A DNA stretch of 64,000 nt from an uncultured Bacilli bacterium (GCA_934155185.1 CAKPGT010000001.1:21684-85683); one strand, 5' to 3'; positions 4,364 to 64,000 are shown, counted from the first letter of the stretch. The notes: a model not told the origin generated them from the letters alone. A program made the numbers and translations.

Positions 4364-4456
4364 GGAGGAATACCCAAGTCTGGTTGAAGGGACCGGTCTT
4401 GAAAACCGGGAGGTCGGGCAACCGGCGCGGGGGTTCGAATCCCTCTTCCTCCGCCA
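4364..4456 (+). tRNA. tRNA-Ser (anticodon UGA)
   Basis: Folds by hand: acceptor GGAGGAA/TTCCTCC, anticodon loop CTTGAAA, long variable arm, T-loop GGTTCGAATCC, encoded CCA. Confidence 0.9.
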
Positions 4457-4467
4457 TTTAATTATAT

Positions 4468-4544
<77 letters not shown>

Positions 4545-5095: not shown

Positions 5096-6571
5096 ATGCA
5101 AAAAAGTTTGTGGCAAAAATATGGACAAAAAGTTAATTTAAGTAGTATAAAAAACGATCAAACAGCTGATATAGTAATTGTTGGCGGTGGAATAACAGGG
5201 CTTACTATAGCTTATAATTTGAAAGATTCAAAATATAAAATAATCCTTTTAGAAGCGGATGACTTTTTTTCGTCAACCACGTGTAAAAGTACTGGTAAAG
5301 TAACATACCTTCAGGATCTAAAATATAGTGATATAGAAAGTGTTTATGATTTTAATACTGCAAAGCTGTATTATGAATCACAAAAAGATGCAATAAAATT
5401 AATTAGAAAAACAGTTGAAGATAATTTAATAGATTGCGACTTAAGAAAAGTAAAAACGGTTACTTTTACAACGGATAATAGTGATATAGCAAAGTTTAAA
5501 AATGAGAAGAGTATTCTTGATAGATTAGGCGTTAAGTACTATGACGAGCCATTATCTTTTGATAAAAAAGATATAAAAGATTTTATAATGGTAAAAAATT
5601 CATATACATTTAATCCAGCAAAATATATAGGTGCATTAATTAAGATTCTAGATAACTCAAACGTAAAACTTTATCAGAAAAGTAGGGTAACTAAAATAAA
5701 GAAAGAAGATAAATTATACGTTTTGTATTCTAATGACTTTAAGATAAGTGCAAAGAAAATAATTGTTTCATGTCATTATCCATTTTTTACTTTACCAGGT
5801 TTTATCCCACTTAAAACCTATACAGAAAAATCTTATATATGTGCTACAAAAATAGAAGATGAAGATGATTATTCATGCATTTCGGCTAGTAAACCTGTTG
5901 TTTCATTTAGATATTATAATGATATGATAGATAAATACTTTATATATTTAAACTGTGTATCAAAAACATGTGATAGTTTAAATTACAAGAAAAATTATGA
6001 AAAGTGTACTTTATTATCAAAAGAAATTACTGGTAAAATGCCTAATTTTAAATGGACTAATATAGATGTTATGACAAATGATTTTATGCCAATAGTAGGA
6101 AGAATATCTGATACGGAAAAAAATGTATTTATAGCAACTGGATATAATACTTGGGGAATGACTAATGGTACTATTGCAGGTAAAATTATTTCAAACCTAG
6201 TTTTAGGAAGAAAAAGTAAATATGCTAATTTGTTTTCACCTAAAAGAAATATTGCAGTAAAAAAGGTAATTAATTTTGCAAAAAACACCCTTTTAGGGAG
6301 TGTTAAATCATATGGTTATACTTTAATAAGAAAGAATCCATCTTGGTATAAGAATAAGGCATATATAGAAAATGTAGATGGAAAAAGAGTAGGCATTTAT
6401 ATCGATGAAAAAGGTAGTAAACACATAACATCAAATACATGCCCACATTTAAAATGCCATCTAATATTTAATGAAATAGATAAAACCTGGGATTGTCCAT
6501 GTCATAGCTCCAGATTTGATATAGATGGAAATATAATAAAGGGGCCAAGTTCACATAATATAAAAACATAG
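5096..6571 (+). CDS. FAD-dependent oxidoreductase with C-terminal Rieske [2Fe-2S] domain (YhfW-like)
   Basis: The N-terminus DIVIVGGGITGLTIAY is a dinucleotide-binding motif. The C-terminus CPHLKCH...CPCHSSRF is a Rieske CxH...CxxH motif. Confidence 0.8.
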   Translation: MQKSLWQKYGQKVNLSSIKNDQTADIVIVGGGITGLTIAYNLKDSKYKIILLEADDFFSSTTCKSTGKVTYLQDLKYSDIESVYDFNTAKLYYESQKDAIKLIRKTVEDNLIDCDLRKVKTVTFTTDNSDIAKFKNEKSILDRLGVKYYDEPLSFDKKDIKDFIMVKNSYTFNPAKYIGALIKILDNSNVKLYQKSRVTKIKKEDKLYVLYSNDFKISAKKIIVSCHYPFFTLPGFIPLKTYTEKSYICATKIEDEDDYSCISASKPVVSFRYYNDMIDKYFIYLNCVSKTCDSLNYKKNYEKCTLLSKEITGKMPNFKWTNIDVMTNDFMPIVGRISDTEKNVFIATGYNTWGMTNGTIAGKIISNLVLGRKSKYANLFSPKRNIAVKKVINFAKNTLLGSVKSYGYTLIRKNPSWYKNKAYIENVDGKRVGIYIDEKGSKHITSNTCPHLKCHLIFNEIDKTWDCPCHSSRFDIDGNIIKGPSSHNIKT

Positions 6572-6574
6572 AGA

Positions 6575-7282
6575 TTATTTAATTTTATCTATTAAAAATC
6601 TTTTTTCAGGTATTTCGCTCTCCAAGAAAAAACTTTCACATATTTCTTTTGAGGTAGAGTTATCAAATAAACCATAATTATTTAGCATTATGTTTTTTCT
6701 TATCAAATTATAATTACATTCATTGACTAATTCAAATGTTAAAAGATTAAATAGAAGTATATCAAGTTCTTTTATAACTCCATATTTTTTGATAAATTCC
6801 TGAGTTATATCACTTCCATCTGATATTTTTATAGGACTATTATTATATGAGCAATTATCAAAATCTATAAAATAAGGAATGTTATCTTCCATAATTATAT
6901 TTGAACTTGAAATATCAGAGTGGATTATTCCATAAGAATGCATTTTTTTAATTTCATGCTTAATATTATCTAAGATTTGCACTTTATATCTTAAATCATA
7001 TTCCTCAAGAAAAGCTAGATCTTTTCCATTAAGTAATTTTGTTAAGTATCCACTTGTTTTGCCATCTTTTTTTATCCAAAACTGTGGCGTTACTAAAAAA
7101 TCTTCATCTATTTTATTTATCCTATTTAATTTTTGCTTTTTCCCGTGCAAAAAAGTAGCATCCTCAAATTCTTTATATGCATAGATGCTTCCATTATATA
7201 AACACTCATATATTTTTCCAAACGATCCGGAGGAAAATGCTTGTTTACTAATCTTTAAGCTATTATAATCAATTATTCTCAT
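6575..7282 (-). CDS. Small stand-alone protein-kinase-fold protein (Hanks-like)
   Basis: SGSFGKIY (Gly-loop), YAYKEF (VAIK-like Lys), GIIHSDISSSNIIM (HxD..N catalytic loop) and IDFDN (DFG-like). RBS AAGGGG. Confidence 0.6.
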   Translation of the reverse strand: MRIIDYNSLKISKQAFSSGSFGKIYECLYNGSIYAYKEFEDATFLHGKKQKLNRINKIDEDFLVTPQFWIKKDGKTSGYLTKLLNGKDLAFLEEYDLRYKVQILDNIKHEIKKMHSYGIIHSDISSSNIIMEDNIPYFIDFDNCSYNNSPIKISDGSDITQEFIKKYGVIKELDILLFNLLTFELVNECNYNLIRKNIMLNNYGLFDNSTSKEICESFFLESEIPEKRFLIDKIK

Positions 7283-7416: not shown

Positions 7417-7492
7417 GCTTCAATAGCTCAGTTGGTAGAGCATCCGGCTGTTAACCGGCAGGTCGTAGGTTCGAGTCCTACTTGAAGCGCCA
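7417..7492 (+). tRNA. tRNA-Asn (anticodon GUU)
   Basis: Acceptor GCTTCAA/TTGAAGC, anticodon loop CTGTTAA, T-loop GGTTCGAGTCC, CCA. A TTGACA promoter lies at about 7364. Confidence 0.9.
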
Positions 7493-7502
7493 TTTAAAAA
7501 TT

Positions 7503-7527
7503 AAAGTAGCATAAGCTGCTTTTTTTT
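7503..7527 (+). terminator. Intrinsic terminator after tRNA-Asn
   Basis: AAAGTAGC ATAA GCTGCTTT stem-loop followed by a T-run. Confidence 0.65.
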
Positions 7528-7624
7528 GTTGTAATTTTTACAGAATATGTCAAAAAAACACTTTTTTGTTATAAATTTCATAAAATGTGATATAATCTAA
7601 ATATATTTATTAAGCAATGAAGAG

Positions 7625-7852
7625 GAAAAGTATTTAAATGATTCCTAAAAGAGAGCTGATGACGGTGAAATATCAGTAGGATAGTTTATTGAAAGAACAC
7701 CTTGGAGCTTCTTACCGAAATTTAATTAAAGTAGGCTAAGACGTAAGAAAACACGTTAAAGTATCTAAAGTGACTATTTTTAAAATAGTAAGCTGGGTGG
7801 TACCACGGATATAGACAGTTATTCGTCCCTATGGGATGCATAACTGTTTTTT
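7625..7852 (+). promoter_or_regulatory. T-box leader, Asn specifier (AAC)
   Basis: AGAGAG and GGTGAAA stem I motifs, specifier-loop GAAAG-AAC-A at 7696-7698, T-box sequence AAGCTGGGTGGTACCACGG (7790-7808) and terminator ACAGTTAT...ATAACTGTTTTTT (7815-7852). An extended -10 TGATATAAT lies at about 7588-7596. Confidence 0.9.
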
Positions 7853-7870: not shown

Positions 7871-9247
7871 ATGTTAGATGTAAAAGAATTATATGAAAAA
7901 ACAGAAGAGTACTTAGATAAGGAAGTTACTTTACAAGGATGGATTAGAAACCATAGAAAGCAAAAAGAGTTTGGGTTTATTGATTTTTCAGATGGAACAT
8001 GTTTTAAACATGTGCAACTTGTATATGATAACGAATCAAGTGATTTTGATACAATTCAAAAGTATCATATTGGAAGTGCAATAACAGTAGTTGGAGATGT
8101 TATAAAATCAGTAGGTAAGGGTCAAGACTTTGAAATTAAAGTATCTAGTATAAAATTAGAAGGAGATTGCCCAGAAGATTATCCTATGCAGCCCAAAAGA
8201 CATTCTAATGAATTCTTAAGAGAGCAAGCTTACTTAAGACCAAGGGTAAATTTATTTCAAGCTGTATTTAGAGTAAGAAGTGCATCCGCATATGCAATTC
8301 ATAAATATTTTCAGGATAGAGGATATGTATACTTTCACGCTCCTCTTATTACAGCAAGTGACTGTGAGGGAGCAGGTGAAATGTTTCAGGTAACTACACT
8401 TGATTTAGATAAAGTAGCTAAAAGTGGTAAGGTAGATTATTCTAAAGACTTCTTTGGAAAACAAGCAAATCTTACTGTATCAGGACAATTAGAAGCCGAA
8501 ACATTTGCACTAGCTTATAAAAAGACATATACGTTTGGACCAACTTTTAGAGCTGAAAATTCAAATACTAAAACACATGCTAATGAATTTTGGATGATAG
8601 AACCAGAAATAGCATTCTGTGATTTAAAAGGTGATATGGATATCATGGAAGATATGCTTAAATATGTTGTTACTTATGTTTTAGAGACATGCAAAAACGA
8701 ACTTGAATTCTTTGATAAGTTTGTTGAAAAAGGTTTACTAGATAAACTACATAAACTAGTTAATAGTAAGTTTACTAGAGTAACTCATGAAGAAGTTATA
8801 ACTATTTTAAAGAATGCTAAAGTAGATTTTGAATTTAAGCCAGAATATGGTGAAGATATAGCAAAAGAACATGAAAAATATATAACTGAATATTTTGATG
8901 GACCAGTATTTATAACAGATTGGCCAAAAGATATTAAGGCATTTTATATGAAACAAAATGATGATGGTAAGACAGTTGCAGCAGTAGACCTTGAAGTTCC
9001 TGGAGCTGGAGAACTTATGGGTGGCTCTCAAAGGGAAGAAGATTATGATAAACTTGTAAATAGAATGGAAGAGTTAAATATGCCAAAAGATGGTATGGAG
9101 TGGTATTTAAACTTAAGAAAATTTGGAGGATGCTATCATTCTGGATTTGGAATGGGATTTGAAAGATTATTAATATACCTAACAGGTGTTGAAAACATAC
9201 GTGATGTAATACCATATCCAAGAACACCGGGTAACTGCGATTACTAA
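7871..9247 (+). CDS. asnS: Asparagine--tRNA ligase
   Basis: Class IIb synthetase with FRAENSNTKTHANEFWMIEPE and the C-terminal GFGMGFERL motif. 458 aa, directly behind the Asn T-box. Confidence 0.9.
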   Translation: MLDVKELYEKTEEYLDKEVTLQGWIRNHRKQKEFGFIDFSDGTCFKHVQLVYDNESSDFDTIQKYHIGSAITVVGDVIKSVGKGQDFEIKVSSIKLEGDCPEDYPMQPKRHSNEFLREQAYLRPRVNLFQAVFRVRSASAYAIHKYFQDRGYVYFHAPLITASDCEGAGEMFQVTTLDLDKVAKSGKVDYSKDFFGKQANLTVSGQLEAETFALAYKKTYTFGPTFRAENSNTKTHANEFWMIEPEIAFCDLKGDMDIMEDMLKYVVTYVLETCKNELEFFDKFVEKGLLDKLHKLVNSKFTRVTHEEVITILKNAKVDFEFKPEYGEDIAKEHEKYITEYFDGPVFITDWPKDIKAFYMKQNDDGKTVAAVDLEVPGAGELMGGSQREEDYDKLVNRMEELNMPKDGMEWYLNLRKFGGCYHSGFGMGFERLLIYLTGVENIRDVIPYPRTPGNCDY

Positions 9248-11012: not shown

Positions 11013-12437
11013 ATGTATAAGGTAACAATAGGACTTGAAGTTCACTGCGAATTAGAGTCAAATTCAAAAGTTTTTTCTCCGGCTGTAAATGGTTATACTG
11101 AAGCTCCAAATAGCCATGTTGCATATCAAGATTTAGGCTTTCCTGGAATACTTCCTGTTGTTAACGAAGAAGCAGTTAAAAGAGCTTTAAAAGTATCTAT
11201 GGCACTTAATTGTAAACAACCAGATGAAATAATTTTCGATAGAAAAAATTATTATTATCCAGATTTACCAAAAGGTTATCAAATAACTCAGATGACTAAA
11301 CCAGTAGGTACAGATGGATATTTAGATATTGATGTTGATGGAAAGATAAAAAGAATAGGGATACATGATACTCATCTAGAAGAAGATTCAGCATCATTAG
11401 ATCACTATGATACATATTCTTTAATAGATTATAATAGATCTGGTGTGCCACTTCTTGAAACAGTAACTGAACCATGCATTCATTCTAAAGAAGAAGCGCT
11501 AAAATTTTTGGAAACATATCGTTCTTTAATAGTTTACTGCGGTGTTTCTGAAGCTAGAAGTGATAGAGGGCAAATGAGATGTGATGTTAATGTCTCAATA
11601 TCTGATACAGATGAATTAGGTTGTAAAGTTGAAATGAAAAACGTAAATTCATTTTATAACGTAGGACGTGCAATAGACTATGAAATTAAAAGACAGACTG
11701 AAATACTTGAAAAAGGCGGAAAAGTAGAGCAGGAAACAAGACGTTTTGATGATGAAACAGGTGAAACGTTTAAAATGAGAAGTAAAGCTGATGCAGTTGA
11801 TTATAAATATTTTATAGAACCAAATATTGCACCAACGCCTGTTACAGATGAAATGCTAGATGAAATTAGGAAGACAATTCCAATGCTACAATTAGATAGG
11901 GTAAAAAAATATACAAGTGAGTATGAACTTTCTAAATATGATTCTGAAGTATTAGTTAAAACTAAAGAAGTATCTGACTTCTTTAATGAAGTTGTTGCAC
12001 TTAACTGTGATCCTAAAAAGGCTTGTAACTGGATAACTGGCATGCTTTTAGGATATTTAAATGCTAATGAATTAACTATAGATGAGGTTCCTGTTAAACC
12101 AGAGGTGATAAAGGAATTAATTGATTTAATTGATAATAAAACAATATCATCAAAGCAGGCTAAAGAAGTATTTGAAGATATGATAGAATCAGGCAAAACA
12201 CCAAGCGTAATTGTAAAAGAAAAAGGTATGATGCAAATAACTGATGATTCAGCTATTCATGATATAGTTATGGAAGTATTAAAAGAAAATGACGACCAAG
12301 CAAGAGAATATAATCCTGAAAAAACAAGAATGATCGATTTCTTTGTAGGACAGGTTATGAAAAAAACTCGTGGTAAGGCAAATCCAGCTAAAACAATGGA
12401 AATGCTAAGAGAAGAACTTGCTAAATATAATAAATAA
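11013..12437 (+). CDS. gatB: Glu/Asp-tRNA amidotransferase subunit B
   Basis: IGLEVHCEL, YYYPDLPKGYQITQ and the C-terminal GatB/Yqey-type tail. 474 aa. Confidence 0.9.
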   Translation: MYKVTIGLEVHCELESNSKVFSPAVNGYTEAPNSHVAYQDLGFPGILPVVNEEAVKRALKVSMALNCKQPDEIIFDRKNYYYPDLPKGYQITQMTKPVGTDGYLDIDVDGKIKRIGIHDTHLEEDSASLDHYDTYSLIDYNRSGVPLLETVTEPCIHSKEEALKFLETYRSLIVYCGVSEARSDRGQMRCDVNVSISDTDELGCKVEMKNVNSFYNVGRAIDYEIKRQTEILEKGGKVEQETRRFDDETGETFKMRSKADAVDYKYFIEPNIAPTPVTDEMLDEIRKTIPMLQLDRVKKYTSEYELSKYDSEVLVKTKEVSDFFNEVVALNCDPKKACNWITGMLLGYLNANELTIDEVPVKPEVIKELIDLIDNKTISSKQAKEVFEDMIESGKTPSVIVKEKGMMQITDDSAIHDIVMEVLKENDDQAREYNPEKTRMIDFFVGQVMKKTRGKANPAKTMEMLREELAKYNK

Positions 12438-19272: not shown

Positions 19273-19348
19273 GGTTCCGTGGTGTAGGGGTTAACACGTC
19301 TGCCTGTCACGCAGAAGATCGCGAGTTCAATTCTCGTCGGAACCGCCA
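19273..19348 (+). tRNA. tRNA-Asp (anticodon GUC)
   Basis: Acceptor GGTTCCG/CGGAACC, anticodon loop CTGTCAC, CCA. A TTGACA promoter lies at about 19212. Confidence 0.9.
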
Positions 19349-19369
19349 TTTTTTTTATAAAGTAATTTT

Positions 19370-19445
19370 GGCTCTGTAGCTCAGTCGGTAGAGCACAGGA
19401 CTGAAAATCCTGGTGTCGGCAGTTCGATCCTGCCCGGAGCCACCA
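19370..19445 (+). tRNA. tRNA-Phe (anticodon GAA)
   Basis: GGCTCTGTAGCTCAGTCGGTAGAGC..., anticodon loop CTGAAAA, T-loop AGTTCGATCCTG, CCA. Confidence 0.9.
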
Positions 19446-19541
19446 TTTTATAAATAAACCCTTTAGAATAAGGGTTTTTATTATAGCTGAATTTTCTAGA
19501 CGCAGTATTAAACACACTTGCATGATGATATAATCATTATG
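19440..19541 (+). repeat. Direct repeat copy A (tRNA-Phe 3' end + terminator + extended -10 promoter)
   Basis: CCACCATTTTATAA..AAACCCTTTAGAATAAGGGTTTTT..CTGAATTTTCTAGAC..ATTAAACACACTTGCATGATGATATAATCATTATG recurs at 20043-20145, roughly 93% identical by hand alignment. Confidence 0.85.
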
Positions 19542-19557
19542 ATAAGGAGGAAAAACG

Positions 19558-20015
19558 TGAGAGTATTATATACAGCTTTTAATGGAAAGTGTAATTCATC
19601 AAAAGTTTTACTTGATAATATTAAATGTAACGAAAGTGATAAACTATATCTAAAAAATAGTTTTGTAACAAGTGTTGAACAACTTCAAAACAAATTGATT
19701 AAAAATAATTATGATTTGATAATATCTTTTGGGGAAGCACCATTGGAGTATAATAATATAAAAATAGAGATTCAAGGTAAAAATAATACTAATATTTATA
19801 ATACTATCTATGATTTTTCTAAACTATGCTATAAATTAAAGGTAAATGGATTTAATGTAATTATTTCACATGATGCCGGTAATTATTTATGTAATAATAT
19901 CTACTATTATGGATTAAAATATATCACAGAGCAAAATTTGAATTGTGATATGATATTTGTTCATATTCCACAGTTAGATAATATAGATATAAGGTTATTG
20001 GCCAAATTATTTTGA
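19558..20015 (+). CDS. Compact pyroglutamyl-peptidase I (C15)-like protein
   Basis: The expected order of catalytic residues is kept: IKIEIQG (Glu), DAGNYLCNNIYYYGL (Cys), IFVHIPQ (His). A GTG start after AAGGAGG is preferred to the track start at 19518, which lies in the promoter. Confidence 0.5.
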
Positions 20016-20020
20016 ATTGA

Positions 20021-20145
20021 TTGTTCTACTTCTTTACTTAGACCACCATTTTATAAGCAAACCCTTTTAGAATAAGGGCTTTTATTATAGCTGAATTTTC
20101 TAGACATACTATTAAACACACTTGCATGATGATATAATCATTATG
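20021..20145 (+). repeat. Direct repeat copy B (decayed tRNA-3'-end-like segment + terminator + promoter)
   Basis: TTGTTCTACTTCTTTACTTAGACCACCATTTTATAA is followed by a near-copy of 19456-19541. Confidence 0.85.
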
Positions 20146-22715: not shown

Positions 22716-22792
22716 GCGCTCGTAGCTCAGCTGGATAGAGCACTTGGCTACGAACCAAGGGGTCAGGAGTTCGAATCTCTTCGGGCGCGCCA
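22716..22792 (+). tRNA. tRNA-Arg (anticodon ACG)
   Basis: Anticodon arm CTTGG-CTACGAA-CCAAG, T-loop AGTTCGAATCT, CCA. Confidence 0.9.
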
Positions 22793-22873
22793 ATATTTAT
22801 TTAATACCATTATTATACACGCAAAGTGGTATTGACTTTGATTAAATCATTATGATATAATCATTTTGTTGTT

Positions 22874-22950
22874 CGGAAAGTAGCACAACTTGGCAGTGCA
22901 CGTGGTTTGGGACCATGAGGTTGCAGGTTCAAATCCTGTCTTTCCGACCA
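22874..22950 (+). tRNA. tRNA-Pro (anticodon UGG)
   Basis: Anticodon arm CGTGG-TTTGGGA-CCATG. Own promoter TTGACT..TGATATAAT at about 22834-22862. Confidence 0.9.
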
Positions 22951-23812: not shown

Positions 23813-23889
23813 GCTCACGTAGCTCAGTAGGATAGAGCGTTACCCTCCGAAGGTAAAGGTCAAAAGTTCAATTCTTTTCGTGAGCGCCA
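23813..23889 (+). tRNA. tRNA-Arg (anticodon CCG)
   Basis: Anticodon arm TTACC-CTCCGAA-GGTAA, acceptor GCTCACG/CGTGAGC, CCA. Confidence 0.85.
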
Positions 23890-23894
23890 TATAT

Positions 23895-23971
<77 letters not shown>

Positions 23972-25107: not shown

Positions 25108-25184
25108 GGGGTTTTAGCTCAGCTGGCTAGAGCGCCTCGCTTGCACCGAGGAGGTCAGGAGTTCGAATCTCCTAAGCTCCACCA
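25108..25184 (+). tRNA. tRNA-Ala (anticodon UGC)
   Basis: GGGGTTT acceptor with a G3:U70 pair, anticodon arm CCTCG-CTTGCAC-CGAGG, CCA. A terminator hairpin follows at about 25197-25224. Confidence 0.9.
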
Positions 25185-31137: not shown

Positions 31138-31214
<77 letters not shown>

Positions 31215-31231
31215 TTTTATATTTATAAACT

Positions 31232-31308
31232 GGCGCGTTGGTGAAGTGGTTTAACACACCGCCCTTTCACGGCGGCATTCATGGGTTCAAATCCCATACG
31301 CGTCACCA
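31232..31308 (+). tRNA. tRNA-Glu (anticodon UUC)
   Basis: Anticodon arm CCGCC-CTTTCAC-GGCGG, T-loop GGTTCAAATCC, CCA. Confidence 0.85.
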
Positions 31309-42265: not shown

Positions 42266-42292
42266 AAGGTATTTAAATAGTACCTTTTTTTT
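42265..42292 (+). terminator. Intrinsic terminator ending the nusA-infB-rbfA operon
   Basis: AAAGGTA TTTAAATAG TACCTTTTTTTT. Confidence 0.7.
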
Positions 42293-42318
42293 GCTATAAT
42301 TTTTTTAGAGGAAGTGAT

Positions 42319-47898: not shown

Positions 47899-49329
47899 AT
47901 GAGAGATAATAAGCCAAAAAAAATAGCGTTAATAGTACTTGTAGTAGCAGTAATAGGACTTACAGTTGCATTTGCAACATTATCAAGTAATTTAACGATA
48001 AATGGAAATGCTAAGTTAGATCCAATAAACTGGGATATATATTTTGATAATATATCTGGCGTAGATTTAAGCGGAGAAGCTGCTATAGTTAATAATCCTG
48101 AAATAGATAGTAATAATAAAACAAAGATAACAAACTTTAATGTTACGTTAAATAAACCAGGAGATAAGGTGGCATTTACAGTAGACTTAGTAAATGAAAG
48201 TGATATAACAGCAATAATAGATAAAATAGATACACCAACTATAAATTATGATTTTATAGAGTTTAAAGCTATATATACAGGGACTAATACAGAAGTTAAA
48301 GAGGGTAATGTAATAGCAGCTAAAACAGGTGGTGAGCCATCAAGAACAAATATAACAGTATCAGTATATTATAGTAAAGAAAAGGTGACAAATGAAGACT
48401 TAGAAAAAATACCAGTAGGTGGTTTAACAATAGATTTAAAAAACTATGGATTAACGTTTGTTCAGTCAGATAAGACAGCTAATATGCCAACTATTGAATT
48501 TGTAGATGGATGCACAGAGTTTACAAAGAAAGATACCTATGAAGTAGGGGATGTAATATCATTTTGTAATAAGAATAAAGGATATACAAATTCAGATGGA
48601 AAATATGTAAAAGGAAAGAGTGAAGACTTTTATGTAATAAGTGATAATGGAGATACAGTTACAGCATTAGCTAAATATAACTTAATTGTGGGAAATAAAT
48701 TAGTATATGATGACAGTTTTGAAAATTTATTATCAAAAACAGCATTAACAAGTAGTGATAAAGATTATGGCTTACAAAGCGGATTAACTAAAGCGGAAAT
48801 AGAAAACACCAGCTTAAAGATAATTGTTTACGGTACAATTGCATTTGCGAATAAGGATGAAAATAGAAAGAAAGCAGGATGTACTGGAAATGGTTGTTAT
48901 TTAGGATACTGGGCAAATACAGATGGAAGTTTAAAGGATAGTTATAAGAATGAAAGCCAAACTGATTATCCAGCAGATGTATATGATAGTAACTCTATAT
49001 TATATGAACATGTACAAAAATATCAAACATATTTTACAAGTACATTAAAAAAGGCAACATCAAAGATGAGATTAATAACGTATAATGAGCTAGTAGGATT
49101 AGGATGCAAAAAAACTACTAGCGATTCTGGAAGCTGTAAAACAGAAACAGTAGCAACAAATAAAAGAGAATGGATATATACTACCAATTATTGGAGTGCG
49201 TCCGCTTATGCTTATAACGACGTGTGGATGGTTGATTCCGGTGGCTACTTCAGCTCTTTCAACGGCTTTTGGAATGATGACTTCATGGGTGCCCGTCCAG
49301 TTATCACAATTAGCAAATCAGAAATATAA
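47899..49329 (+). CDS. Secreted/anchored protein of unknown function, paralogue 1, with hypervariable lectin-tip-like C-terminus
   Basis: N-terminal signal anchor (IALIVLVVAVIGLTVAFA). C-terminal NYWSASA...GARPVITISK. About 80-90% identical to 60573-61934 except in discrete blocks. Confidence 0.8.
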   Translation: MRDNKPKKIALIVLVVAVIGLTVAFATLSSNLTINGNAKLDPINWDIYFDNISGVDLSGEAAIVNNPEIDSNNKTKITNFNVTLNKPGDKVAFTVDLVNESDITAIIDKIDTPTINYDFIEFKAIYTGTNTEVKEGNVIAAKTGGEPSRTNITVSVYYSKEKVTNEDLEKIPVGGLTIDLKNYGLTFVQSDKTANMPTIEFVDGCTEFTKKDTYEVGDVISFCNKNKGYTNSDGKYVKGKSEDFYVISDNGDTVTALAKYNLIVGNKLVYDDSFENLLSKTALTSSDKDYGLQSGLTKAEIENTSLKIIVYGTIAFANKDENRKKAGCTGNGCYLGYWANTDGSLKDSYKNESQTDYPADVYDSNSILYEHVQKYQTYFTSTLKKATSKMRLITYNELVGLGCKKTTSDSGSCKTETVATNKREWIYTTNYWSASAYAYNDVWMVDSGGYFSSFNGFWNDDFMGARPVITISKSEI

Positions 49330-54264: not shown

Positions 54265-54321
54265 AAGGTTTTATTTTTTACTTTTTTTTGCTATAATGTA
54301 TGTAAAGTAGGTGAAACTATT

Positions 54322-60572: not shown

Positions 60573-61934
60573 ATGAGGGATAATAAGCCTATAACAGTAG
60601 CATTGATATTATTAGTTGTATCAATAATAACGTTATCTATAGCATTTGCAATGTTATCAAATAAATTAACCATATCTGGAAATGCTAAGTTAGATCCAAT
60701 AAATTGGAGTATATATTTTGATAATATATCTGGCGTAGATTTAAGTGGGGATGCTGCTATAGTTAATAATCCTGAAATAGATAGTAACAATAAAACAAAG
60801 ATAACAAACTTTAATGTTACGTTAAATAAACCAGGAGATAAGGTGGCATTTACAGTAGACTTAGTAAATGAAAGTGATATAACAGCAATAATAGATAAAA
60901 TAGATACACCAACTATAAGTTATGATTTTATAGAGTTTAGTGCATACTATACAACGGAACCTACAAAGAAAGTTTCAGAAAATGATGTAATAGCTGCTAA
61001 AATAGACGGTGAACCATCAAGAACAAACATAACAATATCAGTATATTATAGTAAAGAAAAGGTGACAAAAGAAGACTTAGAAAAAATACCAGCAGGTGGT
61101 TTAACAATAGATTTAAAAAACTATGGATTAACGTTTGTTCAGTCAGATAAGACAGCAAATATGCCAACCACAACAAAATGGATGAATGGATGTACAACTG
61201 ATTATGTAAAGAAAGCTTCAAATGAAACTTATGAAATAGGAGAATTAATATCATTTTGTAATAAAAATGCAAGATATACAAATTCAGATGGAGTATACGT
61301 AAAAGGAAAGAGTGAAGACTTTTATGTAATAAGTGATAATGGAGATACGGTAACAGCTCTTGCTAGCTATAACTTAATGGTAGGAAGTGAAGCAACAGAT
61401 ACATATGCAACAGCGTTTCCAGGACTTCAAGCAAAAAGCACTACCACATATCCAGTAGCCTTTGCAAATAAGGATGAAAATCACAAAATGACGGTATGTA
61501 CTGGAAATTACTGTTATTTGGGATACTGGACAAATACAGATGGAAGTTTAAAGGATAGTTATAAGAATGAAAGCCAAACTGATTATCCAGCAGATGTATA
61601 TAATGAAAACTCAGCATTATATGAGCACGTACAAAAATATCAAACATATTTTACAAGTACATTAAATAAGGCTACAGCAAAGATGAGGTTAGTAACATAT
61701 AATGAATTAGCAGGACTAGGCTGCGATAGATCAATTAATACTTGTAAAACAAAAACAGTAACAACAAATAAAAGAGAATGGGTATATGCCACCAATTATT
61801 GGAGTGCGTCCGCTCACGATTATAACTATGCGTTGCATGTCAGTGCTGATGGCACCCTTGGAGGTCGCAACTTCTGGTTCGATGGCGTCCTTGGTGTTCG
61901 GCCAGTTATCACAATCTCAAAGTCTGATATCTAG
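60573..61934 (+). CDS. Secreted/anchored protein of unknown function, paralogue 2, with hypervariable lectin-tip-like C-terminus
   Basis: MRDNKPITVALILLVVSIITLSIAFA... The ATG at 60573 follows GGAGG. C-terminal NYWSASA...GVRPVITISK. Confidence 0.8.
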   Translation: MRDNKPITVALILLVVSIITLSIAFAMLSNKLTISGNAKLDPINWSIYFDNISGVDLSGDAAIVNNPEIDSNNKTKITNFNVTLNKPGDKVAFTVDLVNESDITAIIDKIDTPTISYDFIEFSAYYTTEPTKKVSENDVIAAKIDGEPSRTNITISVYYSKEKVTKEDLEKIPAGGLTIDLKNYGLTFVQSDKTANMPTTTKWMNGCTTDYVKKASNETYEIGELISFCNKNARYTNSDGVYVKGKSEDFYVISDNGDTVTALASYNLMVGSEATDTYATAFPGLQAKSTTTYPVAFANKDENHKMTVCTGNYCYLGYWTNTDGSLKDSYKNESQTDYPADVYNENSALYEHVQKYQTYFTSTLNKATAKMRLVTYNELAGLGCDRSINTCKTKTVTTNKREWVYATNYWSASAHDYNYALHVSADGTLGGRNFWFDGVLGVRPVITISKSDI

Positions 61935-62164
61935 CACCGTAAGGTGCTTATAGTCCCGATTTTGGGACAAAATAGGGACTTAAGGGTTTGATTATTTGGG
62001 AAACTTAACCAAATAATCAAACGGCCTTAAACAGGCAATAAAAGGGATAGAGAAAGTAAAAGAAGAGAATGTGAGTGTTTCAGGTCTGCGATTAAGCAAA
62101 GCTGAAACCGATTTGAAATTTTGAATTAAGATAAACTATAGGAGATATAAACTCCTATTTTTTG
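61934..62164 (+). other. Structured, relatively G+C-rich 3' UTR of paralogue 2, ending in an intrinsic terminator
   Basis: Hairpins: GCACC-GTAA-GGTGC (61934-61947); GTCCC-GATTTT-GGGAC with a second GGGAC 6 nt later; a perfect 14-bp stem GTTTGATTATTTGG/CCAAATAATCAAAC (61986-62022); GTTTCAG/CTGAAAC (62077-62108); and the terminator TAGGAG..CTCCTATTTTTT (62139-62164). Confidence 0.6.
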
Positions 62165-62201
62165 TGCTATAATTTTTGTATATGGACTGGAGTGTGTTTA
62201 G

Positions 62202-64000
62202 ATGAAGAAAGTTGAGCTTTTAGCGCCTGTAGGTGATATGGCATGTCTTCGTGCTGCTATAAATGCTGGGTGTGATGCTGTTTATTTGGCAGGTAAGTTA
62301 TTTGGTGCAAGGGCATTTATAAATAATTTTAATGATGATGAATTAATTGAAGCAATTAAATATGCTCATTTACATGGTGTTAAAGTATATTTAACGGTTA
62401 ATACAATTATATATGAAAGGGAAGTAGAAAACTTTATTAAATATATTAGGTTTGTTCATAAGAACAGCATAGATGCTGTAATAATTGAAGACCTTGGTAT
62501 GCTAGATTTAATTAGAAAGAAGTTTCCTAATCTTGAAGTTCATGCATCAACACAGATGCATATTCATAATTATGAAGGTGCTTTGTTTGAAAAAAAGATG
62601 GGTGTTAAAAGAATTGTAATTGCAAGGGAAACGCCACTTGATGTTATAAAGAAAATTAAAGATGAAATAGATATAGAAGTTGAAGCATTTATTCATGGTG
62701 CACTATGTGTTAGTTACTCAGGGCAGTGTTTAATGAGCTCTTTAATTGGAAATAGAAGTGGTAATAGAGGAACATGTGCGCAGTGCTGTAGGAAGAAATA
62801 TGATTTATACGATTTAGATGGTAGAAAATTAAATAATGATGAGTATTTACTTAGTATGAAAGACTTATGTACGCTAGAATATATAGATAAAATAATATCA
62901 TCTGGTGTAGATAGCCTAAAAATAGAAGGAAGGGTTAAAAGACCATCATATGTTTATATAGTAACTAGCATATATAGAAAGGTAATAGATAACTATTATA
63001 AATATGGAAAGTTAAAAATAGATGAAGCTGACATAATAGATCTAAAAAAGATATTTAATAGGTGCTTTACTAAAGGCTTTATTATGAATGAGGAAAATAA
63101 ACTTATAGTAAATCAAAAAAGACCTAATCATATGGGAGTTAGTCTTGGCAAAATAGTAGGCTTTAAAAATGGTTATATAGATATAAAACTTGAAGATAAA
63201 TTAAACATTCATGATGGTCTTAGAATTATTGGCAAGGAAGATAAAGGCCTTGTAGTTAATAAAATGTTTATAAATAAAAAAGAGGTTAATTCTGCAAAAT
63301 GTGGTGATATAGTATCGATAAAGTATAACGAAAAAGTAACCATAGGATCTAAAGTAATTCTTACAACAGATTCACTTAGAATAAAAGAAATAGATGATAT
63401 TTTAAAAGAAGATATAAGAAAAGTTAAAGTAGATATAGAAGTGTCCGCTAAAATAAAAAATAAAATGGTTATTAAAGTGTGCGATGGCAAAAATACTGTT
63501 ACCTTATCATCACTATTTACTATAGAAGAAGCTTTTAAAAATCCTACTACTAAGGATATGATAGAAAAACAAATAACAAAGCTAGGTGGTACTATTTATA
63601 GCGCGGGTAGTATTAAACTAGATGTTTCAGATAATATATTTATAAATATAAAAGACATAAATGAACTAAGAAGAGAAGTATTTAAAAAACTAGATGAAAA
63701 AAGATTATATAATATAGAATTTATAGAAAAAGATTATGAAATTTCTGTTCCTTCTTTTAAAAAAGAAAATCTTAAAAGTATTTTGATTAATACTAAGGAA
63801 GAATATGAAAAATATAAAGATAAATACGATATACTTTATACTAATGATAAAGCTTTATTGCTAGATGATAAATGCGTTCTTAAAATCCCAAGGGTAAATA
63901 GTAAGTACACTTCTTATAGTGGGAAAGTACTAATAGGTGAGGTTGGTAGCTTACTTAAATATGATGATTTTGCAACCGATTTTTCATTTAACGTGGTAAA
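62202..64000 (+). CDS. Peptidase U32 family protein (3' end outside the window)
   Basis: MKKVELLAPVGDMACLRAAINAGCDAVYLAG...EAFIHGALCVSYSGQC...NRGTCAQCCR are U32 hallmarks. The frame stays open to the window edge, so it is absent from the ORF track. Promoter TGTGCTATAAT lies at about 62163. Confidence 0.85.
   Translation, partial: MKKVELLAPVGDMACLRAAINAGCDAVYLAGKLFGARAFINNFNDDELIEAIKYAHLHGVKVYLTVNTIIYEREVENFIKYIRFVHKNSIDAVIIEDLGMLDLIRKKFPNLEVHASTQMHIHNYEGALFEKKMGVKRIVIARETPLDVIKKIKDEIDIEVEAFIHGALCVSYSGQCLMSSLIGNRSGNRGTCAQCCRKKYDLYDLDGRKLNNDEYLLSMKDLCTLEYIDKIISSGVDSLKIEGRVKRPSYVYIVTSIYRKVIDNYYKYGKLKIDEADIIDLKKIFNRCFTKGFIMNEENKLIVNQKRPNHMGVSLGKIVGFKNGYIDIKLEDKLNIHDGLRIIGKEDKGLVVNKMFINKKEVNSAKCGDIVSIKYNEKVTIGSKVILTTDSLRIKEIDDILKEDIRKVKVDIEVSAKIKNKMVIKVCDGKNTVTLSSLFTIEEAFKNPTTKDMIEKQITKLGGTIYSAGSIKLDVSDNIFINIKDINELRREVFKKLDEKRLYNIEFIEKDYEISVPSFKKENLKSILINTKEEYEKYKDKYDILYTNDKALLLDDKCVLKIPRVNSKYTSYSGKVLIGEVGSLLKYDDFATDFSFNVV

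Follow-up and report, generated by a model that had tools for sequence, protein, structure and literature searches.

Diversity-generating retroelements (DGRs) provide a known bacterial means of rewriting the binding tip of a protein. Here we describe a 64,000-nucleotide stretch of DNA from an uncultured Bacilli bacterium (GCA_934155185.1, CAKPGT010000001.1:21684-85683; hereafter, the window), in which a protein-coding gene, designated paralogue 1, ends in a short tract that is poor in A and rich in G+C. We consider it very likely that positions 49198-49300 are the variable region (VR) of a chromosomal DGR target gene, and this copy, VR1, is probably now dormant or decaying.

The DGR of phage BPP-1 consists of mtd, which carries the VR, avd, the template repeat (TR), and brt. 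As in the family of paralogue 1, its VR and TR differ specifically at adenines, the TR contains AAY codons, and the VR occupies the extreme 3' end of its gene. The BPP-1 VR requires a downstream hairpin or cruciform whose 4-nt loop is of the GRNA type (Guo et al. 2011, PMC3240598), and in most copies of the family, too, a hairpin with a loop of 4 nt immediately follows the VR. The stems of the family hairpins are short or A/T-rich, and their loops (GTAA, GAA, or GAAA) fit GRNA only in part. A structured RNA, the RT-10 motif, lies 3' of the TR in BPP-1 (Weinberg et al. 2017, PMC5737381), and a putative counterpart lies 3' of the TR in the family. In contrast to the phage-borne BPP-1 DGR, the family is cellular and has multiple targets, and neither Avd nor a reverse transcriptase (RT) was seen with it.

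Remote DGR targets are also known, as in the Treponema denticola DGR, which has seven non-adjacent targets, and in the 'Lineage 4' DGRs (Wu et al. 2018, PMC5758913). These remote-target DGRs share with the present family paralogous targets that are scattered over the chromosome and that each have a 3'-terminal VR matching a single TR apart from adenines; their RT is distant, as that of the family would be. Unlike in the described systems, the TR of the family, in every TR-bearing locus with enough flank, is not beside an RT either, and the RT of the family was not found in the searches described below. The RNA motifs RT-1 to RT-19 were described near RT genes; only RT-10 was tied to DGRs, whereas for the other motifs this was only suggested or speculated (Weinberg et al. 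2017, PMC5737381).

The variable tract and its gene family

Two copies of the family are present in the window, with the following parts.

47899-49329, plus strand: paralogue 1 (P0001, 476 aa), with an N-terminal membrane anchor, a beta-rich body, and a C-terminal variable domain
49198-49300, plus strand: VR1, the TR-homologous segment (GCG TCC GCT ... CGT CCA G), 66% identical to the TR at 203-302 of locus L275 (see below) and one codon longer than it
49293-49329, plus strand: conserved 3' tail RPVITISKSEI with the stop codon ('SKSEI' type), without a stable hairpin behind it
60573-61934, plus strand: paralogue 2 (P0004, 453 aa), with same-locus orthologues in other strains (L270, L271, L272, and L273)
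61806-61905, plus strand: VR2, the corresponding region of paralogue 2, 76% identical to the L275 TR

In the segment 49192-49296, 17 of the 105 nt are A (16.2%) and the G+C content is 50.5%. The remainder of paralogue 1 (47899-49191) contains 43.7% A and 29.2% G+C, and the whole window 39.4% A and 27.7% G+C. Among all 105-nt windows of the 64-kb stretch, which served as the baseline, only 0.03% are equally A-poor and G+C-rich. Equally extreme values occur otherwise in tRNA genes and in the paralogue 2 tail (61779-61968), and a marginal further stretch is found at the start of the gene after paralogue 2 (62210-62315). The tail of paralogue 2 has the same signature (15% A and 53-55% G+C). The left flank of the tract, AATTATTGGAGTGCGTCCGCT, is identical in the two paralogues (49186-49206 and 61794-61814), as is the right flank, CCAGTTATCACAAT (49297-49310 and 61902-61915). 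Between these flanks, which are separated by 87-90 nt, 38 of the 87 aligned positions differ by hand count, and paralogue 1 has one extra codon. The sequence-only reading that had drawn attention to this locus is thus borne out in its recounted composition, in its description of a variable segment between identical flanks, and in the encoded tail that it quoted, NYWSASAYAYNDVWMVDSGGYFSSFNGFWNDDFMGARPVITISKSEI, which agrees with our translation; the signature of the paralogue 2 tail was not remarked there.

A search of the protein collection returned 643 relatives of the window proteins, nearly all of them unnamed, from gut metagenomes and metagenome-assembled genomes (MAGs) labelled Bacilli, Clostridium sp. 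CAG:594, or Lachnospiraceae. Neither window paralogue matched a family in Pfam or NCBIfam. All members share an N-terminal hydrophobic anchor, a beta-rich body, and a C-terminal tail, in which YW(S/T)ASA is followed by ~30 hypervariable residues and then by G-x-RPVITISKS(D/E)(I/L). The variable tip comprises the last ~45 residues and has the scaffold YW-x-ASA ... VW-V ... G-F ... FW ... G-x-RPVITISK. The product of paralogue 1 is a membrane-anchored protein that is probably exposed at the surface. Genomes carry multiple copies of the family, and assemblies frequently break within them. A third copy, P0181, lies on the same contig, outside the window; it is recorded on ERZ27287456:k141_799938 (116,043 nt), the contig that bears paralogue 2. 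Because the VR of P0181 is identical to the L120/P0002 VR in three strains, it represents another stable VR.

The tails of most members contain 11-19% A and 46-58% G+C, compared with 29-33% G+C upstream. The members in L131, L135, and L137-L140 have the same scaffold but ordinary A/T-rich tails, in which even AGA is used for Arg. Because such tails occur on the same scaffold, the A-poor composition is a mutational signature rather than a requirement of the fold. The family is also mosaic: P0006 and P0010 have different gene bodies with identical tails, and tail cassettes accompanied by a non-coding element (described below) occur in differing genomic contexts.

Structure prediction gave confident models, with a predicted local distance difference test score (pLDDT) of 87, and of 88.6 for the C-terminal domain. 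Foldseek searches of the PDB and BFVD with the full-length and C-terminal models yielded no hit at E <= 0.001 and none of the Mtd/TvpA type, and a profile search against the PDB gave no match. Foldseek did give weak matches to a DUF6273 protein of a phage. Among 40 members compared with Pfam, Lcl_C was matched by three and DUF6273 by five, all weakly (best E ~1.5e-3), and the window protein matched neither. The family resembles the Lcl_C (DUF1566) and DUF6273 variable domains in the layout YWS(S/A)...VW.V...G......G.RP(V/C)V, but no match reached a curated or significant threshold. The C-type lectin (CLec)/DUF1566 fold that had been proposed for the tip was therefore not confirmed, as Foldseek gave no significant hit and the Pfam matches are weak and limited to a few members.

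Template repeats and adenine-specific differences

TRs were sought with an Asn-rich guess of the template, which was applied to all fetched loci in six frames and, for the window lineage, to the protein collection. In the sister clade (CAG:594-like), TR-like copies are located ~175 nt past the stop codon of genes with 'SKSDI'-type tails. One of them (L185 11308-11433) encodes ASANNNNNVWNVNSNGNFDSNNFDNSGNYGLH, and 13 more copies were found. Thirteen distinct VRs match the L185 TR at 90-99% of the non-A positions and at 71-83% of positions overall, a pattern that reads as the classic DGR signature. Many sister-clade TR copies are decayed by stop codons, truncation, or loss of the 3' RNA. The 'relic' in L133 was at one point taken as a replaced gene end, an explanation that was dropped because a truncated TR explains L133 better.

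For the window lineage, the search of the protein collection returned two tiny open reading frames (ORFs), one of which is on L275 and leads to the TR at L275 203-302 (ASARDYNNVWNVNANGNFEGNNFWNDDNLGARP). This contig contains, in order, the 3' part of a spacer element, a short leader, the TR, and a conserved 3' flank. L275 1-96 matches the window at 62022-62118, in the spacer element behind VR2, at 92%. Neither the window nor the 10 kb past its end contained a TR, and the patterns of the TR and the spacer (Sp) had no match in viral contigs or genome contigs. The VRs of the lineage were compared with the L275 TR at its 27 adenine and 73 non-adenine sites, with the following mismatch counts.

L228: 15/27 adenine sites and 2/73 other sites (p = 7e-9)
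L271: 15/27 and 3/73 (p = 3.6e-8)
L270: 11/27 and 5/73 (p = 1.6e-4)
L121, the VR1-locus orthologue: 22/27 and 11/73 (p = 1e-9)
Window VR2: 13/27 and 11/73 (p = 1e-3)
Window VR1: 13/27 and 20/73 (p = 0.06)

The differences are thus concentrated at TR adenines in the family and in VR2, where 9 of the 11 non-A changes are exchanges between C and T. A TR that matches VR1 at every non-A position had been envisaged from the sequence alone; a TR for the family exists, but VR1 departs from it at 20 of the 73 non-A sites.

The variation also follows the codon frame. Among ten VRs of the lineage, including both window copies, columns with at least three different bases fall 15, 17, and 3 times at codon positions 1, 2, and 3, respectively, and they coincide with the adenines of a TR-like tail (odds ratio 11, p = 2e-7). 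In the L275 TR, which has a G+C content of 50%, 25 of the 27 adenines are at codon positions 1 and 2. Replacement of ~50% of the TR adenines is predicted to give 14% A and 59% G+C. Because this composition is near that observed, the A-poor, G+C-rich tract noted earlier is explained quantitatively.

Comparison of strains within protein clusters at 90% identity revealed a change restricted to the VR of a sister gene. In P0007, P0185, and P0186 of the window lineage, 11 of the 40 VR residues vary and none of the 412 residues elsewhere (p = 6e-13), and 10 of the 11 variable positions have A-containing codons in the TR. This confinement to the VR indicates that the DGR system was very recently active in the window lineage.

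The region behind VR2 contains two further features.

61933-61948, plus strand: hairpin 1, overlapping the stop codon (AGCACC GTAA GGTGCT)
61935-62114, plus strand: structured non-coding element of ~180 nt, which accompanies 'SKSDI'-type tails and is cut off at 62114 in the window

The DNA downstream of VR2 has a fold z of -5.5 and forms hairpin 1, TTATAG, and then two further hairpins. Hairpin 1 has different stem sequences in three lineages, all of which preserve the base pairing, a loop of the GTAA type, and the TTATAG that follows. The ~180-nt element consists of hairpin 1, TTATAG, hairpin 2 (61953-61979), hairpin 3 (61986-62022), and a 3' part that is conserved and has GCTGAAACCGATTT at its end. 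It matched no Rfam family, and the spacer-element pattern had no match in genome contigs beyond the contig already known. The element at 61935-62114 is 88-100% identical among strains and paralogues despite differing neighbour genes. It ends near the same point in most non-master copies (the window, L120, L228, and L271), and in L275 it continues into the leader, the TR, and an RT-14-like RNA. Several sister-clade VRs with strong signatures are followed by no special hairpin element, just by an ordinary terminator hairpin.

Three further observations concern these parts. Between L191 (~5810-5840) and L185 (~11160-11190), the central 17 nt of hairpin 2 are exact reverse complements (AATTTCTGGAAGAAATA and TATTTCTTCCAGAAATT) and the stem arms are unmoved; such an inversion between inverted-repeat arms suggests that these arms are paired in vivo. 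Downstream of the TR cassette, L275 463-512 (50 nt) is 90% identical to L269 20203-20252, an intergenic segment of the window's genome that is located upstream of suf genes (a SufC-like gene), ~8.8 kb past the window end; the common stretch contains the palindrome-like TGTGTGTAGA(C/T)A. At L132 573-710, from a MAG labelled Muribaculaceae that is probably mis-binned, the tail of a family gene is AAC-rich, TR-like, and almost unmutated (NYWTASARDYDNVWNVNYNGSFDGNNFWNDNNFGLRPV), and the other paralogues of this MAG have ordinary A/T-rich tails. The L132 tail could represent a VR that was newly reset, or else a template located within a coding region.

The RT-14 RNA and the surroundings of the two genes

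Directly 3' of the TR, L275 303-452 gave a full-length match to the Rfam family RT-14 (RF02921), with 32.2 bits (E = 0.015 in a 617-nt search). For a survey of this RNA, 120 loci (L276-L395) were fetched by its most conserved string. About 60 of them encode an RT of ~338 aa with the DGR hallmark IGN(Y/L)TSQ...Y(L/M)DD. In the loci examined, such as L292 (5617-6962), L334, L360, L305, and L325, the DGR RT is followed by the leader AGGGATAAATCRAAA, by a TR rich in Asn codons, and by RT-14, which begins at the 3' end of the TR. The VRs lie 1-2 kb upstream, and their mismatches are confined or nearly confined to adenines. An upstream VR was found in 11 loci; the mismatches are all at TR adenines in four of them (17/17, 19/19, 20/20, and 21/21), and the remaining seven have one to four non-A mismatches. 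On the basis of this gene order and of the adenine-biased VRs, RT-14 is assigned to the 3' side of the TR: in DGRs of gut bacteria with A/T-rich genomes, it is, for a large class, the RNA that comes immediately after the TR.

The present family resembles the RT-14-type DGRs of Clostridia MAGs from the gut, whose hosts are likewise A/T-rich, in having a short leader (TAGGGTAATGTTAWAA, compared with AGGGATAAATCRAAA in those DGRs), an AAY-rich TR, and an RNA (putative in the family) that is built like RT-14 and begins where the TR ends. In their canonical order, the VR gene is followed by an accessory gene in some cases, the RT, the leader, the TR, and RT-14, whereas in the family the leader comes after the target gene with no RT gene in between. 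The two groups have unrelated TR sequences, and the RT-14 match of the family is below the threshold (32 versus 48 bits). A nucleotide search with the leader, TR, and Sp of L275 revealed no close relative among the canonical RT-14 loci. By its arrangement, the TR cassette of the family (leader TAGGGTAATGTTAWAA, TR, and RT-14-like RNA) looks like an RT-14-type DGR that has no RT gene.

The neighbourhood of paralogue 1 consists of conserved housekeeping and sporulation genes (RsgA, Cse60, and CotE), and the locus is syntenic with L121 of another strain, with RsgA upstream, and Cse60 and a polysaccharide-synthesis gene downstream. Paralogue 2 is flanked by a two-component system on one side and a U32 peptidase gene on the other, as in L270-L273. 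A T-run followed by TGCTATAAT recurs at 7519-7552, 42284-42317, 54281-54314, and 62157-62190. This unit stands in front of several genes, among them the one for the U32 peptidase behind paralogue 2, and looks like a reused terminator tail joined to an extended -10 promoter. Elsewhere in the window, there is a T-box leader (128 bits) at 7608-7833, upstream of a 458-aa ORF (7871-9247), and tRNA genes are found at 4364-4541, 7417-7489, 19273-19442, 22716-22947, 23813-23968, 25108-25181, and 31138-31305. An 86-nt direct repeat with 93% identity (19456-19541 and 20060-20145) flanks an ORF at 19518-20015, just downstream of two tRNA genes.

Probable dormancy of VR1, the search for the enzyme, and alternative explanations

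Judged from its sequences, the family would qualify as a DGR target: its VR/TR differences follow adenines, its TR contains AAY codons, its VR is 3'-terminal, most copies have a hairpin behind them, a putative RNA flanks the TR, and recent change is restricted to the VR. In the proposed mechanism, the TR would be carried behind the 3' end of one 'master' paralogue, in the order VR gene, hairpin element, short leader, TR, and RT-14-like RNA. It would be transcribed and then reverse-transcribed with misincorporation opposite adenines, and the complementary DNA would replace the VRs of the paralogues in trans. The TR adenines are almost confined to positions 1 and 2 of AAY codons, with A avoided elsewhere, which accounts for the ~50% G+C of the TR; randomization of these adenines would then leave an A-poor, G+C-rich VR tract. 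We infer that a DGR reverse transcriptase located elsewhere in the genome does the rewriting.

A number of results weigh against this reading. Taken alone, VR1 gave negative or marginal outcomes in several DGR tests: its adenine bias is marginal (p = 0.06, with a TR from another strain), its 20 non-A differences include changes beyond the reach of A-mutagenesis of the L275 TR, it is one codon longer than the TR, and no stable hairpin is present within 60 nt of its stop codon (z +0.77; -2.5 kcal/mol). VR1 is identical in P0001 and P0179, which differ at 16 other residues, and VRs are also stable in the P0002 and P0003 clusters and in most sister-clade and 90%-identity clusters. The L275 TR itself comes from a 617-nt contig of another strain or sample, not from the window's genome, and the RT-14 match of L275 (32.2 bits) is lower than the Rfam gathering score of 48.1. 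Foldseek (PDB and BFVD), Pfam, and the PDB profile search did not confirm a lectin-like fold.

The enzyme belongs to the same side of the balance. The window, the 10 kb downstream (L269), and the ~1.23 Mb that surround 108 family loci were searched with regular expressions, phmmer, and a profile of RT-14-type RTs, none of which revealed an RT. The profile gave 2694 matches, and among the 120 listed, none was traceable to a family-bearing genome. The 10 kb downstream contain just housekeeping and two-component genes, and Pfam assigned ten large ORFs of the window to housekeeping genes, with no RT. That the 64 kb hold no RT, Avd, or TR had already been stated in the sequence-only reading and is confirmed. 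In every TR-bearing locus with enough flank, the TR is directly behind the target gene and no RT lies within 10 kb. The sole RT beside a family gene (L158 1290-3232, contig OGPT01014729.1) was rejected as an assembly chimera with an unrelated gut phage DGR, joined via a shared 19-nt string in the middle of a phage ORF. The phage is widespread in the gut, and in L230 it carries a standard DGR with a VR at 5443-5557, a TR at 5677-5791, and a 425-aa RT at 6001-7278; the target is a 760-aa tail-fibre-like protein, and its VR and TR are unrelated to the family. The 15-mer TGGAGTGCGTCCGCT, tried as a probe for genome contigs, gave more than 119 unrelated matches in G+C-rich genomes.

Because the adenine signature of VR1 is weak, one codon is extra, no hairpin lies downstream, and the region is unchanged between two strains, VR1 is probably a dormant remote copy, old and quiescent. 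The earlier proposal that the gene may be a remote target of a DGR, or the fossil of such a target, is therefore supported; its fossil half fits VR1 better, and its active half less well, given p = 0.06 and the unchanged VR1 in two strains.

A tentative extension, to which we give less than even weight, is a detached architecture, in which the template cassette (a promoter-like leader, the TR, and the RT-14-type RNA) is located behind a target gene and duplicated with it, and the RT is not linked. Several TR cassettes and numerous remote VRs may then depend on one RT that is located elsewhere or supplied by a mobile element.

Of the alternatives, the one that survives best is that VR1 is a currently active remote target, rewritten in trans like its sister copies. 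L121, the orthologue of the VR1 locus in another strain, has a wholly different VR with a strong signature (22/27 versus 11/73), the hairpin element is also absent behind several sister-clade VRs with strong signatures, and a recent VR-only change exists in the window lineage. Nevertheless, current activity is unlikely in view of a VR that is identical in two strains with 16 other residue differences, the length that is off the TR by one codon, the 20 non-A mismatches, and the lack of a hairpin within 60 nt of the stop codon.

The family might also have diversified with no retroelement, by recombination or gene conversion among paralogues together with diversifying selection, the 'TRs' being leftovers of duplicated gene ends. 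The mosaics with identical P0006 and P0010 tails on different bodies, the tail cassettes with the non-coding element in differing contexts, the truncated TR relics (L133), and the stability of most VRs within clusters are all consistent with such exchange. It leaves unexplained, however, the concentration of differences at TR adenines (15/27 versus 2/73 and similar), the avoidance of third codon positions, and the 11 changes in 40 VR residues with none in 412 others, and the leader and RT-14-like RNA beside the TR are parts of a DGR. We regard this explanation as very improbable. A horizontally acquired G+C-rich cassette, or a composition imposed by what the fold demands in amino acids or codons, would suit the sharp borders and a composition foreign to a 28% G+C genome, but has a negligible chance of being correct, since A/T-rich tails occur on the same scaffold (L131, L135, and L137-L140), the signature recurs in many genomes exactly across the TR-homologous span, and the TR predicts the composition quantitatively.

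If 49198-49300 is a DGR VR, as we consider very likely, such a region can be recognized from raw sequence in an A/T-rich genome as a sharp-bordered, A-poor, G+C-rich tract of 100 nt at a gene end, and the list of DGR targets would gain a surface-protein family that is unannotated, present in multiple copies, and found in uncultured gut bacteria of low G+C content. That RT-14 comes immediately after the TR in the bona fide DGRs examined lends direct support from genomes to what Weinberg et al. (2017) had suggested, namely that further 'RT' RNA motifs belong to DGRs. If TR cassettes do work without a linked RT, RT-based surveys would undercount DGR templates and targets. Were the detached architecture true, RT-anchored DGR finders would miss such systems, and the TR cassettes could persist, decay, or reactivate independently of the enzyme.

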